A DNA stretch of 64,000 bases, taken from the IMG/VR virus record IMGVR_UViG_3300029231_000002, positions 7,518 through 71,517 of that record; one strand, given 5' to 3'. Made by a program: the position numbers and the translations under genes. Every line of letters begins with the position of its first letter. The first letter of the stretch is position 1. Under the pieces are notes generated by a model, which had not been told where the DNA came from, made no database searches, and saw only the letters and a list, made by a program, of their open reading frames with translations. Shown here in pieces: positions 7,443-61,536 of this stretch. Origin of the DNA: a virus.

Positions 7443-7872
7443 GCTCTTTTAATTCTCTTTTAATAATTTCTATATCTTTGCCATACACATTAGTAACAAC
7501 TGTTGCTTGAGGTAAGCCACCATGCATAACATAATATATATCCGCTAAATAGTTATTTGGTGGTTTAATTGACGCTAAGTAAAACGCAGCCTGGGCATAG
7601 CATACCTGCATATACTTACTATTCCAACTAGGCATATAAAGAATATCACCTTTAAATATACGGTTATCTTTTGTATCCAAATAACCAGTACATTGCCCTA
7701 CAGTTTCAATATCTACTTCTTTTGCAACCATTTCTGAATAATCATCACCTATCCAGTTTGAGTATTCAACAATAAAGGCTTCCTCTTCCTGGATTACCAA
7801 GTATCCATATACCCACCTTCTATTATGAATATCCTGTCCTCTATATAGGAAGTTATTTAAGTTGATATTCAT
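7408..7872 (-). CDS. hypothetical protein
   Basis: 154-aa ORF. Confidence 0.5.
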   Translation of the reverse strand: MNINLNNFLYRGQDIHNRRWVYGYLVIQEEEAFIVEYSNWIGDDYSEMVAKEVDIETVGQCTGYLDTKDNRIFKGDILYMPSWNSKYMQVCYAQAAFYLASIKPPNNYLADIYYVMHGGLPQATVVTNVYGKDIEIIKRELKEHEKGIDKNENN

Positions 7873-57068: not shown

Positions 57069-57080
57069 CTAAAAAAAAGA

Positions 57081-57241
57081 AAACCCCGAAAAGTCTTAAC
57101 TACCTATAACACGCCCGATCATGCATGGCTGCCGGATCCGAAGTTCCTGGTTGGTTTTTAAGCTGTAAGCTTAAAAATAGGAAGACGACAATGAACTCAT
57201 TGTCAAACTCTGTTATAGGTAGTTAGGGCGTTTCGGGGTTT
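57081..57241. terminator. 160-bp quasi-palindrome: 31-bp inverted arms (AAACCCCGAAAAGTCTTAACTACCTATAACA / TGTTATAGGTAGTTAGGGCGTTTCGGGGTTT) enclosing about 95 nt with internal small hairpins. Acts at least as a bidirectional terminator (T8 run on minus side)
   Basis: Arms compared base by base (about 28 of 31). T-run TTTTCTTTTTTTT follows on the minus strand. Confidence 0.5.
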
Positions 57242-57247
57242 AATTAC

Positions 57248-57398
57248 TTTCATCTTATCTGACCTCCAGAAATTGGAGAAACGTTGATGGGAGTCGAACG
57301 TTAGGAAGCATGTGTTATATGTATAATATTAGTTATACATTAGGACATAACATAAGGAGATGCTAACGAAATATTTCTGGAGGTCAAATAAGATGAAA
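57248..57398. repeat. second 150-bp quasi-palindrome: 26-bp near-perfect inverted arms (TTTCATCTTATCTGACCTCCAGAAAT / ATTTCTGGAGGTCAAATAAGATGAAA) around a 96-nt imperfectly self-complementary core
   Basis: Read directly. The internal ATGTATA...TATACAT hairpin sits at the centre. Confidence 0.5.
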
Positions 57399-57834
57399 AT
57401 AAAGTATCTTGATATTATTAAGACTACCTAAGTAGTCCCCATGCGATTATACGGTCCCGTCGTTTTGGCGGATGAGGAGGTATAACGCGATGTCACGGGT
57501 TGTTTTCATAGGTTTATGACTGCCGTCTAAACCATAAGAAAAAACCATTAAGAACTCTTAATGAATCTCGACTACCTAGGCAGTCTTAATAATATCAAGA
57601 TAATAAAATACAGTATCCCATGTTGGCGCTATAATTAGTAATATCTTTCCTTACCGTTATCTATCCTATAATTTCTTATAGGAAGCGAGCATGTGACCAA
57701 CGGTACACAACCGCAATTGGGCCAGATGTTATTACTATTATTTATTTTTATTCCTAGAACTCTCGGAATGAAAATTATAACACATGAGATACTGTATTTA
57801 TAAATAGAAATAATATCTAATATTATTCCTACAG

Positions 57835-57847
57835 ATTACTTATACCA
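57835..57847 (-). promoter_or_regulatory. conserved extended -10 motif copy 6 (TGGTATAAGTAAT), 8 nt beyond the stop of 57856..58905, pointing into the non-coding region
   Basis: Motif identity. No minus-strand gene lies downstream. Confidence 0.4.
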
Positions 57848-58905: not shown

Positions 58906-60363
58906 TTAGAACCCCTCCCTTTTAAATATGTCGATCATATCCTCTACAGTTTTTTGGCGATGCTTATCCATGATAGTTTTTAACTTTAGGGTTTTATCTG
59001 GATCTACTATACTGAGAAATGCCAGCTTGCCATTAAACACCCGTTTACTCAAGGGTTTCACCATTAAATTTCTAAATGATGATTTAAAGAATTTATTGTG
59101 AGCCGCATACTTTTTAACTAACGCGATTCTAGCAGGATGTATATTATACATTACTTCTCGTATACCAAGCTGTTTTCCAATCAGCATCGCTTCAACTCGC
59201 AGGTCATTATATTTACTCCGTGGATACTTTACTTCCGAGTTAGATATATGTAATCCCAATACAGTTTTCACCGATTGTACATATTTATACATTGGTTTAA
59301 CTATAAATTCTAAATTTGGATATTTCGTATGAACCAGGTCAGTGATACGTGTTAATGTTTCTGGCAATTCATCCAATGGAATTTTGGTATCCTTAGAGAA
59401 CGTGAACTCAATGACTTTGGCAGATATTGTTCCACGTAAGTCTGGCATCTGTAAATAGTTTGTTATAATCCCGATAATTTTAGCAGACTGAGTAGATGGC
59501 AGATATGTAACTTTTGTTTTTATACGGAAGCCAGTTACAATAGGATAAGCTTTATCACGCATAATTCCAACTTTCTTATAATTCATCCGAAATGGATGTA
59601 CTACCTCACTAAGTTCGCTGATAAAGTCCTGACATTCTGCATCACTTTTGTTACCTGAAAAGCATAAATCATCTGCATATCGAGTATATGTAAACCCAAA
59701 CTTTTCTGCTAGTTCCGCTACTCTGCAATCAAAATCATAATTAAGGATTATAGTAAGAATTGGAGAAGTAGGAGCTCCCTGCGGTAGTACCCCATCTAAA
59801 CAAACAAGTTTAACGATTCTACTCAGAACATCCAGGGGTAAATTTGTATTAAAATTTTTTGCAATTAAATGCTCAAGCCCTTTTTGTACATATAAGGATG
59901 TGTGAGCTGGGAAAAAGTCTTTTAAATCTACATGTACAAGTACCCCGTCATTAGCAACTGTTTTAGCTGCATCTACAATGTTTTTACCTTGCATAAATGC
60001 GTAATTACACGGATGTTTAGGAAACTGATTAAAGAATTCCATTAGCTTTAATTGTAGTTCCTTTAAAGCTTCGGTAGGGGCATTGATTTCTCTAAGTTTA
60101 ATACCAAAAGAATAGGGAACGATTTTCTTAGTATTCTTATCGATATAAAACCTGGAATAACAGGCTTTTGCAGTAACGTCTGTTATAGACGTTAGTATTT
60201 CAGGAGTTACTCCCATATAACTTGAAAAAGAATTATAATCAATAAAGGGCAATTCGGATAATGTAAGTACTCGATTGCCACAGATACTTTCTAATTGACT
60301 ATGCCGCCCAGTTAAAGTATTATAATACTCACGTACAAGCTTTGGAAACCTGTTAATATCCAT
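58906..60363 (-). CDS. reverse transcriptase, retron-like (group II/retron/Abi clade) with about 150-aa C-terminal extension
   Basis: RT motifs VHVDLKDFFP (A), LPQGAPTSPILTIILN (B'), FTYTRYADDLCFSG (C), and PIVTGFRI (VTG triplet characteristic of retron RTs). QGxxxSP argues against a DGR-type RT. Confidence 0.85.
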   Translation of the reverse strand: MDINRFPKLVREYYNTLTGRHSQLESICGNRVLTLSELPFIDYNSFSSYMGVTPEILTSITDVTAKACYSRFYIDKNTKKIVPYSFGIKLREINAPTEALKELQLKLMEFFNQFPKHPCNYAFMQGKNIVDAAKTVANDGVLVHVDLKDFFPAHTSLYVQKGLEHLIAKNFNTNLPLDVLSRIVKLVCLDGVLPQGAPTSPILTIILNYDFDCRVAELAEKFGFTYTRYADDLCFSGNKSDAECQDFISELSEVVHPFRMNYKKVGIMRDKAYPIVTGFRIKTKVTYLPSTQSAKIIGIITNYLQMPDLRGTISAKVIEFTFSKDTKIPLDELPETLTRITDLVHTKYPNLEFIVKPMYKYVQSVKTVLGLHISNSEVKYPRSKYNDLRVEAMLIGKQLGIREVMYNIHPARIALVKKYAAHNKFFKSSFRNLMVKPLSKRVFNGKLAFLSIVDPDKTLKLKTIMDKHRQKTVEDMIDIFKREGF

Positions 60364-61190
60364 TATACATTCTCCTTTTCTACAGGTTCATCTTTGAGAT
60401 ATGTGTTTGTATACCATTCCTCAAAGTCTTTATTACTTTTAAACTTTTGTAAAATGGGAAATTCGTTGCTGTCGATATCCAACCCTGAAATAATAGTATT
60501 TGCGTATAACTGTTGGATATCTTTATTGATTTCCTCTTTTGATATCGGATTTAGGGTAAAGAAGCATTTATAATCGATATCATAATTAATACATAAAGTA
60601 TCTTCTTTATGAGCTTGATGTTTACATAGATTACACTTATTCTTTATTTCTATACCATTAAGGATCAGCTTATGTTCTACTGGAAGATGCATATAGTATT
60701 TTAAGGACTCAATATCTTCTGTATCCTTTAATAGAGTAACATATGCATTTCCGAAAACTAGGTTTGAAACAAATACATTAGCATCAGTTATTAGACTCAT
60801 AACAGTACTAATAGGCATAGGGGAGGTATCAAATAACGGAACTGTACAAAATACGGGTTCAGTATTTTCGTCTGTAAAAACCTGAAGGTCATTAAAAATT
60901 AACCGTTTAGAAGAGGAAGTATAAACTTCTAAAACACCATAGGTACATTCTTTTAATTTAGTACAAAAGTCCCTGAATTCATCTGCACTAAATTCCCATA
61001 TAAGATAATTCTTAAAAATGGGGGTCAACGGTTTAAAAGAAAAATAAGCGCATCTTGCAATTACACCTGGTACGATTTGCAGCAAGACACCGATGTTGAG
61101 AGCATTAGGTCCCCAGTAAACAACAGTGTTGCTTTTGTCTACTATAGTTCCTTGTCTCTCTTGAGTTTCCATAGAACTCATGGCAGTCAC
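60363..61190 (-). CDS. hypothetical protein, first gene of the RT module
   Basis: 275 aa. The stop overlaps the RT start (ATGA-type coupling). The likely start is the internal ATG (MSSMETQ), which has RBS AAAGGAA. Confidence 0.55.
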   Translation of the reverse strand: MTAMSSMETQERQGTIVDKSNTVVYWGPNALNIGVLLQIVPGVIARCAYFSFKPLTPIFKNYLIWEFSADEFRDFCTKLKECTYGVLEVYTSSSKRLIFNDLQVFTDENTEPVFCTVPLFDTSPMPISTVMSLITDANVFVSNLVFGNAYVTLLKDTEDIESLKYYMHLPVEHKLILNGIEIKNKCNLCKHQAHKEDTLCINYDIDYKCFFTLNPISKEEINKDIQQLYANTIISGLDIDSNEFPILQKFKSNKDFEEWYTNTYLKDEPVEKENV

Positions 61191-61200
61191 ATTCCTTTCT

Positions 61201-61249
61201 TTTAATAAAAAATAAAAGACCCTGAAATCAATTGCTTGACTCAGGGTCT
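61201..61249 (-). terminator. rho-independent terminator (AAGACCCTGA-15 nt-TCAGGGTCTT then TTTTATTTTTTATT) immediately upstream of the RT-module RBS
   Basis: 10-bp perfect stem plus a T-run on the minus strand. Confidence 0.55.
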
Positions 61250-61497
61250 TCGGAGGATGGCCGCTCTGGTTTAGATTTGTGCACTAAAGTGAGATAGTGA
61301 ATAACACTTTGTAAGGGGATGATTATTTCTGCACAGGTTAGGACCGAGCGGCGTAGTCCTAAGAGAAGAAACCACCCCAATGAGGGCTGCATCTATAACA
61401 GTACTCTCCTAAAAGAAAACTGCGTTAGGGTACATCTCCCAGATGCGTGCCGTCAGCGCAGACTTACGTTTTCTTTAGAGGTTTGATATAGATATCT
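61201..61497 (-). ncRNA. candidate discrete leader/ncRNA unit (about 290 nt) between the promoter motif and the terminator, upstream of the RT module; possible retron msr-msd-like template or regulatory leader
   Basis: Bounded by the extended -10 at 61504-61516 and the terminator. Contains hairpins AGGAC-N11-GTCCT and CATCT-GGG-AGATG, and a CTCTAAAGAAAAC / GTTTTCTTTTAGAG pairing. No ORF. Confidence 0.35.
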
Positions 61498-61503
61498 TCT
61501 CCA

Positions 61504-61516
61504 TATTACTTATACC
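61504..61516 (-). promoter_or_regulatory. conserved extended -10 motif copy 7 (TGGTATAAGTAAT), 20 nt downstream of the terminase stop
   Basis: Motif identity. Confidence 0.4.
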
Positions 61517-61536
61517 ATTTTGATCTCTATAACATT

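Follow-up and report, generated by a model that had tools for sequence, protein, structure and literature searches.

What is the role of a structured stretch of RNA that lies between the terminase gene and a reverse transcriptase (RT) module in a phage genome: is it the template that the enzyme copies, or does it govern the expression of the module? The question is raised by the IMG/VR record IMGVR_UViG_3300029231_000002, of which a stretch of 64,000 nt was analysed (positions 7,518 to 71,517; hereafter the window), the unit examined being located at positions 61201-61497 on the minus strand. On this strand a large terminase gene is followed by an intergenic gap, an open reading frame (ORF) designated ORF-A, a retron-type RT gene and a third gene, ORF-C. 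The original prediction held that the gap contains a promoter-to-terminator unit free of ORFs, which would either be the msr-msd template RNA of a retron or place the RT module under an attenuator or riboswitch. We favour, with a chance that we put at about even, the reading that this unit is a structured 5' leader (and first cistron) that acts as a translation-gated attenuator of the ORF-A/RT/ORF-C operon, and not a template RNA. The elements on which this reading is built are as follows (MFE, minimum free energy; SD, Shine-Dalgarno sequence):

61536-61191, minus strand: intergenic gap between the terminase gene and ORF-A, 346 nt
61517-61502, minus strand: extended -10 promoter motif TGGTATAAGTAATATG (TG at 61517-61516, TATAAG at 61514-61509)
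61363-61502, minus strand: leader domain 1, in which helix P1 encloses P2 and a small P5 hairpin (61388-61372), as given by MFE folds and a covariance model
61502-61495 with 61371-61363, minus strand: P1 closing helix (GGAGAAGA with UUUCUUCUC)
61389-61494, minus strand: P2, a long imperfect stem of ~35 bp (5' strand 61494-61468, 3' strand 61419-61389)
61420-61461, minus strand: apical core at the tip of P2, CUGCG..GGCACGCAUCUGGGAGAUGUACCCUAACGCAG, 42 nt
61390-61410, minus strand: translation start region of the small ORF (SD AGGAG at 61410-61406, AUG at 61392-61390)
61228-61392, minus strand: small ORF of 54 codons, MQPSLGWFLLLGLRRSVLTCAEIIIPLQSVIHYLTLVHKSKPERPSSEDPESSN (stop TGA at 61230-61228, in the terminator apex)
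61338-61362, minus strand: hairpin H3, UUAGGAC/GUCCUAA, inside the small ORF (helix 7 of the covariation count)
61252-61352, minus strand: leader domain 2, an irregular and faster-evolving hairpin (closing stem GCCGCUC at 61352-61346 with GAGCGGC at 61266-61260)
61204-61251, minus strand: intrinsic terminator (stem 61251-61241/61225-61216 with a small apical extension, U-tract 61217-61204)

An extended -10 promoter behind the terminase stop codon and a strong terminator just ahead of the first ribosome-binding site of the RT module had been proposed as the ends of the unit, and both were borne out, although the proposed limits miss 61517-61498, where the promoter and the initial bases of the transcript are located. 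The promoter motif begins 19 nt past the terminase stop codon and occurs in 8 copies in the window, all of them on the minus strand (0.75 expected; none of 100 shuffles reached 8), and it was found at the orthologous site in 11 related loci; transcription would start near 61504-61501. At the other end, the terminator arms (61250-61241 and 61225-61216) are complementary at 10/10 positions and are followed by TTTTATTTTTTATT, the hairpin having a dG of -21.4 kcal/mol. By its sequence (G+C-rich stem, U-tract directly after it, sense orientation) this hairpin fits an intrinsic (Rho-independent) terminator, at which termination is predicted. Perfect stems of at least 9 bp followed by a T-run are rare, with only 2 such hairpins on both strands of the window (~0.1 in shuffles), one of which is the leader terminator; a stock terminator scan missed it because of the 15 nt gap between its arms. 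The terminator was found in all leader homologues (with compensatory arm changes in L166) and ends ~14 nt ahead of the ORF-A ribosome-binding site. As the motif search of the window revealed no promoter motif between the terminator and the ORF-A start, the RT operon would depend on read-through.

The related loci (referred to by their L numbers) were taken from IMG/VR and other assemblies. All of them are large contigs of phages (those of sufficient length measure 118-159 kb), in which the gene order of the window recurs and whose RT homologues are 34-92% identical to the window RT. Most lineages have a gap of 300-400 nt, with the promoter motif, directly before ORF-A.

The intergenic RNA (346 nt) was found to fold with an MFE of -99 kcal/mol (z = -3.66), which none of 100 shuffles equalled, and the leader homologues gave z values from -1.0 to -9.3, so that the several stable hairpins noticed originally are indeed present. 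Comparison with related phages, which had been suggested as a check, provided the covariation. Alignment of the raw leader sequences (MAFFT followed by RNAalifold) predicted only 8 pairs because the stems were misaligned, and we therefore used a covariance model built from the sequence and fold of the window. This model recovered L081, L166 (1e-15), L003 (4e-7), L239 (8e-7) and L171 (2e-5), and it detected no second copy of the leader in the window. In the model-fitted alignment of six sequences, 91.4% of the cells were paired and 27/52 pairs showed compensatory changes; shuffles never reached the observed values on four of five measures (0/500) and did so in 2/500 cases for the remaining one (further pair types), while a structure slid by 1-3 columns, taken as control, yielded 41-49% pairing and 4-6 compensatory pairs. 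The signal was spread over helices 1-3 and 6 (79-94% paired, compensatory changes in 23/38 pairs), with helices 2 and 3, which form P2, having both-side changes in 16/25 pairs and 92-94% of their cells paired. The leader fold is thus conserved with covariation: relatives have in common the 5' closing helix, the long hairpin with differing arms, the 42-nt core and a further hairpin, and the P2 arms vary in sequence among phages while their complementarity is kept. Farther downstream, H3 underwent compensatory changes in 4/7 pairs (e.g. GGAC/GUCC to AAGC/GCUU in L003) and covaries although the peptide of the small ORF differs there, and the closing stem of domain 2 is kept in L166 by changes from C-G to U-A. 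In L081, whose RT is only 83% identical to that of the window, domain 1 is the same as in the window save for one short insertion, whereas the interior of domain 2 differs.

The claim that no ORF lies between promoter and terminator proved to be wrong. A 54-codon ORF with an ATG start occupies 61392-61228, and homologous small ORFs of 34-60 codons are present in L081, L166, L003, L171, L083 and L085; the ATG falls within a conserved GATGCA motif that opens a frame of 34-60 codons in every core-bearing lineage. This frame (frame 0) is stop-free in all lineages, whereas the other two contain 2-6 stops over the same span in most of them (frame +2 is likewise stop-free in the short L083/L085 span). 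The chance of an open frame was 0.01-0.13 per lineage, which gives a product of ~1e-7 over five independent lineages. Moreover, pairwise nucleotide identity at codon positions 1/2/3 was.44/.62/.38, and the mean BLOSUM62 score reached 31.5 in frame 0, the other two frames scoring -3.7 and 6.6. The predicted peptides can be aligned gap-free over their 26 N-terminal residues (M-x-x-S-L-x-x-[YF]-[LM]-[LV]-L ... [IV][IL]-x-P), which are followed by a basic tail, and a public protein collection already holds a 54-aa protein (P0126) that is 96% identical to the product. Judged by these sequence signatures, the small ORF is coding.

Two relations tie this ORF to the surrounding structure. Firstly, its SD and AUG lie in the 3' strand of P2, and its translation start is therefore occluded: in the MFE structures of 6/7 homologues 13-17 of the 19 nt in the SD-to-AUG stretch are paired, and both signals fall in the covarying helices 2 and 3. 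Secondly, it runs through H3 and domain 2 to the terminator, with the stop codon located inside the terminator in the window, L081, L166 and L003, and 4-8 nt before it in L171. Translation of the leader ORF would therefore overlap the terminator hairpin, as in an attenuator (L083 and L085 are borderline).

On this basis the translation-gated attenuator could work as follows. The phage promoter would start an RNA whose first 140 nt fold into the closing helix and the long hairpin that bears the 42-nt apical element. As long as P2 is closed, the SD and AUG of the small ORF would be buried and its translation blocked. The ORF itself passes through the second hairpin domain and would end in the terminator, 14 nt before the ORF-A ribosome-binding site. 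In the off state, no ribosome would be loaded, the terminator would form and a discrete RNA of ~300 nt would be released. In the on state, P2 would be opened, a ribosome on the small ORF would cover the terminator arms, and RNA polymerase could read into ORF-A, RT and ORF-C. One possibility for the opener of P2 is a factor bound to the apical element. Beyond this switching, the conservation of its N-terminal 26 residues suggests that the peptide may itself have a role.

Several observations weigh against this reading, and are the reason for our restraint. The covariance model failed to recover the L083/L085 leaders, and the covariation alignment was fitted to the model's own structure. The small ORF of L166 begins with TTG, a long spacer of 13 nt separates SD and AUG in the window, and the stop codon lies 13-16 nt upstream of the terminator in L083/L085, at the edge of the reach of a ribosome. 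A peptide that served purely as a leader would not usually be conserved in sequence, and no alternative antiterminator helix was identified (no systematic search for one was made). Transcription start, termination efficiency and translation are all inferred. Furthermore, the L004/L169 clade runs the same operon without the leader, which is therefore dispensable: the gap measures only ~75 nt and consists of a promoter, one small hairpin and U8, while ORF-A, RT and the RNA array downstream of the module (described below) are kept. These reduced operon leaders are:

L004, 4163-4233: promoter, one hairpin, U8
L169, 5267-5344: promoter, one hairpin, U8

The reduced leaders are also the kind of arrangement expected if the leader were a generic feature of transcription units, i.e. 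a 5' hairpin with a U-rich tract that serves as stabiliser or as phage antiterminator site, with no specific link to the RT. The copies of the promoter motif point in the same direction, since most of the eight would give transcripts that open with a 5' hairpin, several of them continuing with a U-rich tract (this combination may be an mRNA stabiliser or an antitermination site).

10061, 16073, 20767, 26307, 32518, 50495, 57847 and 61517, minus strand: copies of the promoter motif TGGTATAAGTAWWWTG

In 5/6 of the other copies that precede genes the 5' untranslated region measures ~50-75 nt, each starting with a hairpin, whereas the one following the 61517 copy extends over 327 nt (terminator included). 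Only the latter copy is endowed with a covarying fold of 327 nt, a conserved small ORF and a strong terminator, and in L083/L085, where other genes separate the leader from the terminase gene, it still adjoins ORF-A. We leave the generic explanation the slimmest of chances. As a separate observation, a second orphan promoter-to-terminator unit was encountered at ~16073-15985 (minus strand), in which a strong hairpin (AATAGGTCGTAAGA..TCTTGCGGCCTATT) with a T-run stands ~35 nt past the promoter copy; a convergent gene lies beyond it, and the unit may encode an RNA of ~75 nt.

As the small ORF is conserved as protein in its N-terminal 26 residues, the whole unit could be a stand-alone small-protein gene. 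According to this explanation the 54-aa peptide (toxin-like or membrane-active, of the kind known from type I toxin-antitoxin systems, or else a small component of the RT complex) would be the point, the fold would do no more than limit its translation, the terminator would close off the gene, and leakage would account for expression of the RT genes. The presence of an own promoter and terminator agrees with it. So does the occluded SD in a long 5' fold, since an occluded ribosome-binding site is found in type I toxin mRNAs (bsrG/SR4 and other Bacillus prophage-borne toxins; hok/sok), with which the leader further shares an ORF of 34-60 codons, a hydrophobic N-terminal part, a basic tail, an own terminator and its location in a phage. 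Unlike in these mRNAs, the stop codon is tied to a pre-operon terminator, no sigma-70-type promoter-like site was detected on the plus strand in 61191-61536 (and hence no candidate promoter for an antisense RNA), and the hydrophobic stretch of the peptide is broken by charged residues, leaving no clean transmembrane segment. The lack of the latter two features leaves the type I toxin comparison without clear support. Moreover, the peptide matched no PHROG or other family, its C-terminal half and length vary (34 to 60 aa) while the stop keeps tracking the terminator, and the explanation leaves the RT operon without a promoter of its own. We consider it unlikely that the small protein is the sole purpose of the unit.

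If the translation-gated attenuator has a sensor, the apical core is the obvious candidate. Its consensus, CUGCG..GGCACGCAUCUGGG(A)GAUnnACCCnAMCGCAG, is nearly invariant across seven relatives, and a pattern based on it had a single match in each related locus, invariably located at the tip of P2. Since the core has no conserved reading frame (the frame differs between L003 and L083), we regard it as an RNA or DNA element and as a candidate binding site for a protein or RNA. When viral contigs were scanned with the core pattern, 66 hits were obtained, only four of which were contigs of the family (three known and L239); the pattern was too loose, and the rest look like chance. The same core is what an RNA with a role in trans would need, and we weighed the alternative that the terminated 300-nt RNA is a dual-function or trans-acting scaffold or decoy, bound via its core by ORF-A or RT, with the small ORF being secondary. 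In its favour, the core is the most conserved part of the leader and non-coding, domain 1 is near-identical between the window and L081 despite the divergence of their RTs, and a strong terminator would yield a discrete RNA. Against it, neither a partner nor a target could be identified, no sequence complementary to the core occurs in the downstream array or elsewhere in the window, and the core is absent from the L004/L169 clade, all of which renders this alternative improbable in our view. A pairing of the core with an array hairpin loop was also considered and dropped, as the complementarity was inconsistent across phages. With regard to the layout originally suggested, the attenuator fits the anatomy well, whereas a riboswitch is not indicated: an Rfam 15 scan of the leader (E up to 10) returned only sub-threshold noise and no ligand-type motif was seen, although the conserved apical core could possibly harbour a new aptamer.

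The genes that flank the leader are given below.

63144-61537, minus strand: large terminase gene (PHROG 675, Pfam GpA_ATPase; stop codon 61539-61537)
60363-61190, minus strand: ORF-A, 275 aa from GTG at 61190 (ATG at 61181), fast-evolving
58906-60363, minus strand: retron-clade RT, 485 aa, with an N-terminal extension, an inserted alpha/beta domain (~290-380) and C-terminal helices
57856-58905, minus strand: ORF-C, 349 aa, the variable third gene of the module

The RT was matched by the PADLOC retron RT_III-A model (4e-48) and by NCBIfam retron_St85 (156 bits, below the cut-off of 235), and its family profile ranked retron RTs of the PDB (6e-33 to 8e-18) ahead of group II (1e-8) and DRT2 (1e-6) enzymes. 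In agreement with this, an AlphaFold (AF2) model (pLDDT 83.5) was found by Foldseek to be closest to the Eco7, Ec86, Eco2 and Ec78 retron RTs (E ~1e-15, target-normalised TM 0.70-0.72), the top 18 matches all being retron RTs. Judging from sequence profiles and the predicted fold, the RT belongs to the retron lineage, yet it is divergent. The N-terminal extension comprises ~90 residues (with low model confidence only in the first 35), and the inserted alpha/beta domain sits between the palm and the thumb-like helices. Retron RTs have a VTG signature in motif 7 (PMC8632793). This signature is present in the window RT (IVTGF) and in some relatives, only the G being conserved family-wide. At the position of the NAxxH motif, which is typical of retron RTs, the family reads D/K/E-A-A/V-x-x.

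ORF-A is always found directly upstream of the RT gene, abutting or overlapping it, and has four invariant cysteines (C186, C189, C200 and C209; PCxxC ... C ... YxC[LF]F in alignment A4); it is probably a zinc-binding partner of the RT. Neither ORF-A nor its homologues matched Pfam, PHROG, PADLOC, NCBIfam or the PDB, and the AlphaFold model of ORF-A is unreliable (pLDDT 35). The counterparts of ORF-C (in L003, L083, L167, L168, L169, L170 and L171) range from 168 to 560 aa and show little or no similarity between clades. No Pfam domain and no PHROG, PADLOC, NCBIfam or PDB match was obtained for any version, and in L171 no such gene was called in the interval from RT to array.

The carrier phages appear, by their terminase, to be an uncultured group distantly related to Herelleviridae, as the terminase is ~25-28% identical to terminases mostly from large phages of Staphylococcus, Bacillus, Listeria and Enterococcus. 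Protein searches did not find the RT family in deposited phages, a DNA search of phage GenBank gave no match, related phages without the RT were looked for in IMG/VR and none was found, and a metagenome scan with the RT alignment produced only generic retron RTs among the matches listed. A divergent retron-clade RT is a fixed neighbour of the terminase in this phage group, accompanied by two RNA elements that are outside Rfam. In a more distant clade (RTs of ~390-400 aa) we observed a different leader without the conserved core (L170 4134-4436, L006 3773-4319), the leader region of L170 holding a hydrophobic ORF of 28 codons (VMLIGGLLACFVLAAVEPFFILFGGVRN), a possible analogue of the small ORF.

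The affiliation of the RT gives weight to the question of whether the leader is its msr-msd, i.e. both primer and template of the adjacent RT and copied in part into branched msDNA. The leader shares its strand with the downstream RT gene, from which ORF-A separates it by 830 nt, and it immediately precedes a module with an RT that both sequence and predicted fold assign to the retron type; it is highly structured, having a long hairpin and a 5' closing helix, and the faster evolution of its domain 2 relative to domain 1 is a trait of msd regions too. In retron non-coding RNAs (ncRNAs) the 5' and 3' ends can pair with each other, the msr part with its short stem-loops precedes a single long msd hairpin, and a branching G is conserved (PMC8632793). 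The leader departs from this plan in nearly every respect: its 5' end (61502-61495) pairs 130 nt downstream at 61371-61363, inside the small ORF, rather than at the 3' end (near 61250-61205); the hairpins come in the opposite order, the long P2 being placed before the short P5 (PMC8632793 for the msr-msd order), while domain 2 is irregular, poorly conserved and predicted to be translated; and P1 runs straight into P2, leaving no unpaired conserved G after the 5' arm. In addition, a conserved small ORF, coding by its sequence signatures, fills 61392-61228, the Rfam scan that had been advised gave no match to retron msr, and the leader is missing from the L004/L169 clade, which retains ORF-A, RT and array. 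Finally, the downstream array is a far better architectural match to a retron ncRNA. What remains of the original prediction is a conserved, covarying RNA with its own promoter and terminator ahead of the RT operon, together with the plausible attenuator layout; its use as a template is very unlikely.

The array is situated at the opposite end of the module:

57069-57847, minus strand: downstream array, in which a second copy of the promoter motif (57847-57832) is followed by ~770 nt without a long ORF, with a U-tract at the end

It consists of four consecutive units, each closed by a stem of ~19-34 bp (MFE -275.6 kcal/mol, z = -16), and a small hairpin with a GAGUUC apex (G[ANUU]C) is present in 3/4 of them; the Rfam scan of the array gave only sub-threshold noise. 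Arrays follow the RT module in every related locus that is long enough to show them, including the leaderless clade and L171. Most units are composed of a long 5' arm, a linker of ~8 nt starting with R-A, a small hairpin with a GANUUC apex and a U/A-rich stretch, which are succeeded by a G+C-rich hairpin region (often with TCG(C/A/G) shortly before the 3' arm) and the 3' arm. When GANTTC sites were collected from twelve arrays with no selection for stems, flanking stems of at least 5 bp were found at 33/46 of them (29 different arm sequences), as compared to 0/114 in the rest of the window. Between the window and L081 the arms, small hairpin and spacer are kept (arm changes being compensatory), whereas the G+C-rich part is almost wholly replaced, so that the 3' segments are hypervariable. 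The hairpin of the L004 operon leader was seen to have a GAUUUC apex like the array hairpins (GANTTC), followed by a U-tract, which hints at one protein that would recognise the array hairpins and act on the operon leader as well.

Array units resemble retron ncRNAs in their complementary ends (17-34 bp), short conserved 5' hairpin and variable 3' hairpin, and differ from them in the lack of an invariant G after the 5' arm; an invariant branching G in each unit was looked for and rejected, given that the 5' arm is followed by G in about half of the units and by A in the others. We predict that the array units, and not the leader, are probably the retron-like RNAs that provide the template of the RT. 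The search for this template is thus redirected from the upstream RNA to, probably, the downstream array with its hypervariable inserts. A diversity-generating retroelement (DGR) was also considered and rejected: neither leader nor array has a similar copy in the window beyond the promoter motifs and its own arms, and the RT is not of the DGR type.

In bacteria, retron-type RTs are known from systems that defend against phages, in which each RT has a single ncRNA. Our searches of the literature found no description of the present RT module, its leader or its array. As a tentative proposal, to which we give a chance clearly short of even, the module could be a previously undescribed phage-borne retron-like system, in which the divergent RT and the Cys4 protein ORF-A would operate on 3-5 or more msr-msd-like RNAs arrayed in tandem (units that could be excised from one precursor) instead of a single ncRNA, while the leader would be the control element, its core being bound by the RT, ORF-A or an array product and thereby deciding on small-ORF translation and read-through. 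If true, a set of different, fast-evolving small DNAs or ribonucleoproteins would be made during infection. Confirmation of the array would mean that phages use retron chemistry for their own ends, and could supply naturally multiplexed retron scaffolds.

With respect to known systems, the leader is an element of a known kind (an occluded small ORF combined with a terminator) on a module for which no description was found, and offers a concrete and testable example of how such a module may be switched, with a buried ribosome-binding site, a mini-gene and a terminator in one unit of 320 nt. The PR'-tR' region of phage lambda, which yields the 6S RNA and serves late-gene antitermination, is similar in that a phage promoter has a terminator close behind it and gives a short RNA unless termination is overcome. 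It is dissimilar in that the leader has a conserved ORF and an operon-specific covarying fold, and that no Q-like protein or site was identified here. Ribosome-mediated attenuators, in which a leader ORF runs into an intrinsic terminator (pyrBI of E. coli and, more loosely, trp and his), display the same order of promoter, leader ORF, intrinsic terminator and operon ribosome-binding site, and here too the leader ORF extends into the terminator hairpin, so that a translating ribosome would prevent the hairpin from forming. Unlike in these attenuators, no runs of regulatory codons or U-rich pause sites were identified in the leader, the N-terminal half of the leader peptide is conserved, the operon is a phage retron-type RT module for which this function is predicted, and the entry of the ribosome into the leader is itself gated by a covarying hairpin of 35 bp that hides the SD and AUG.

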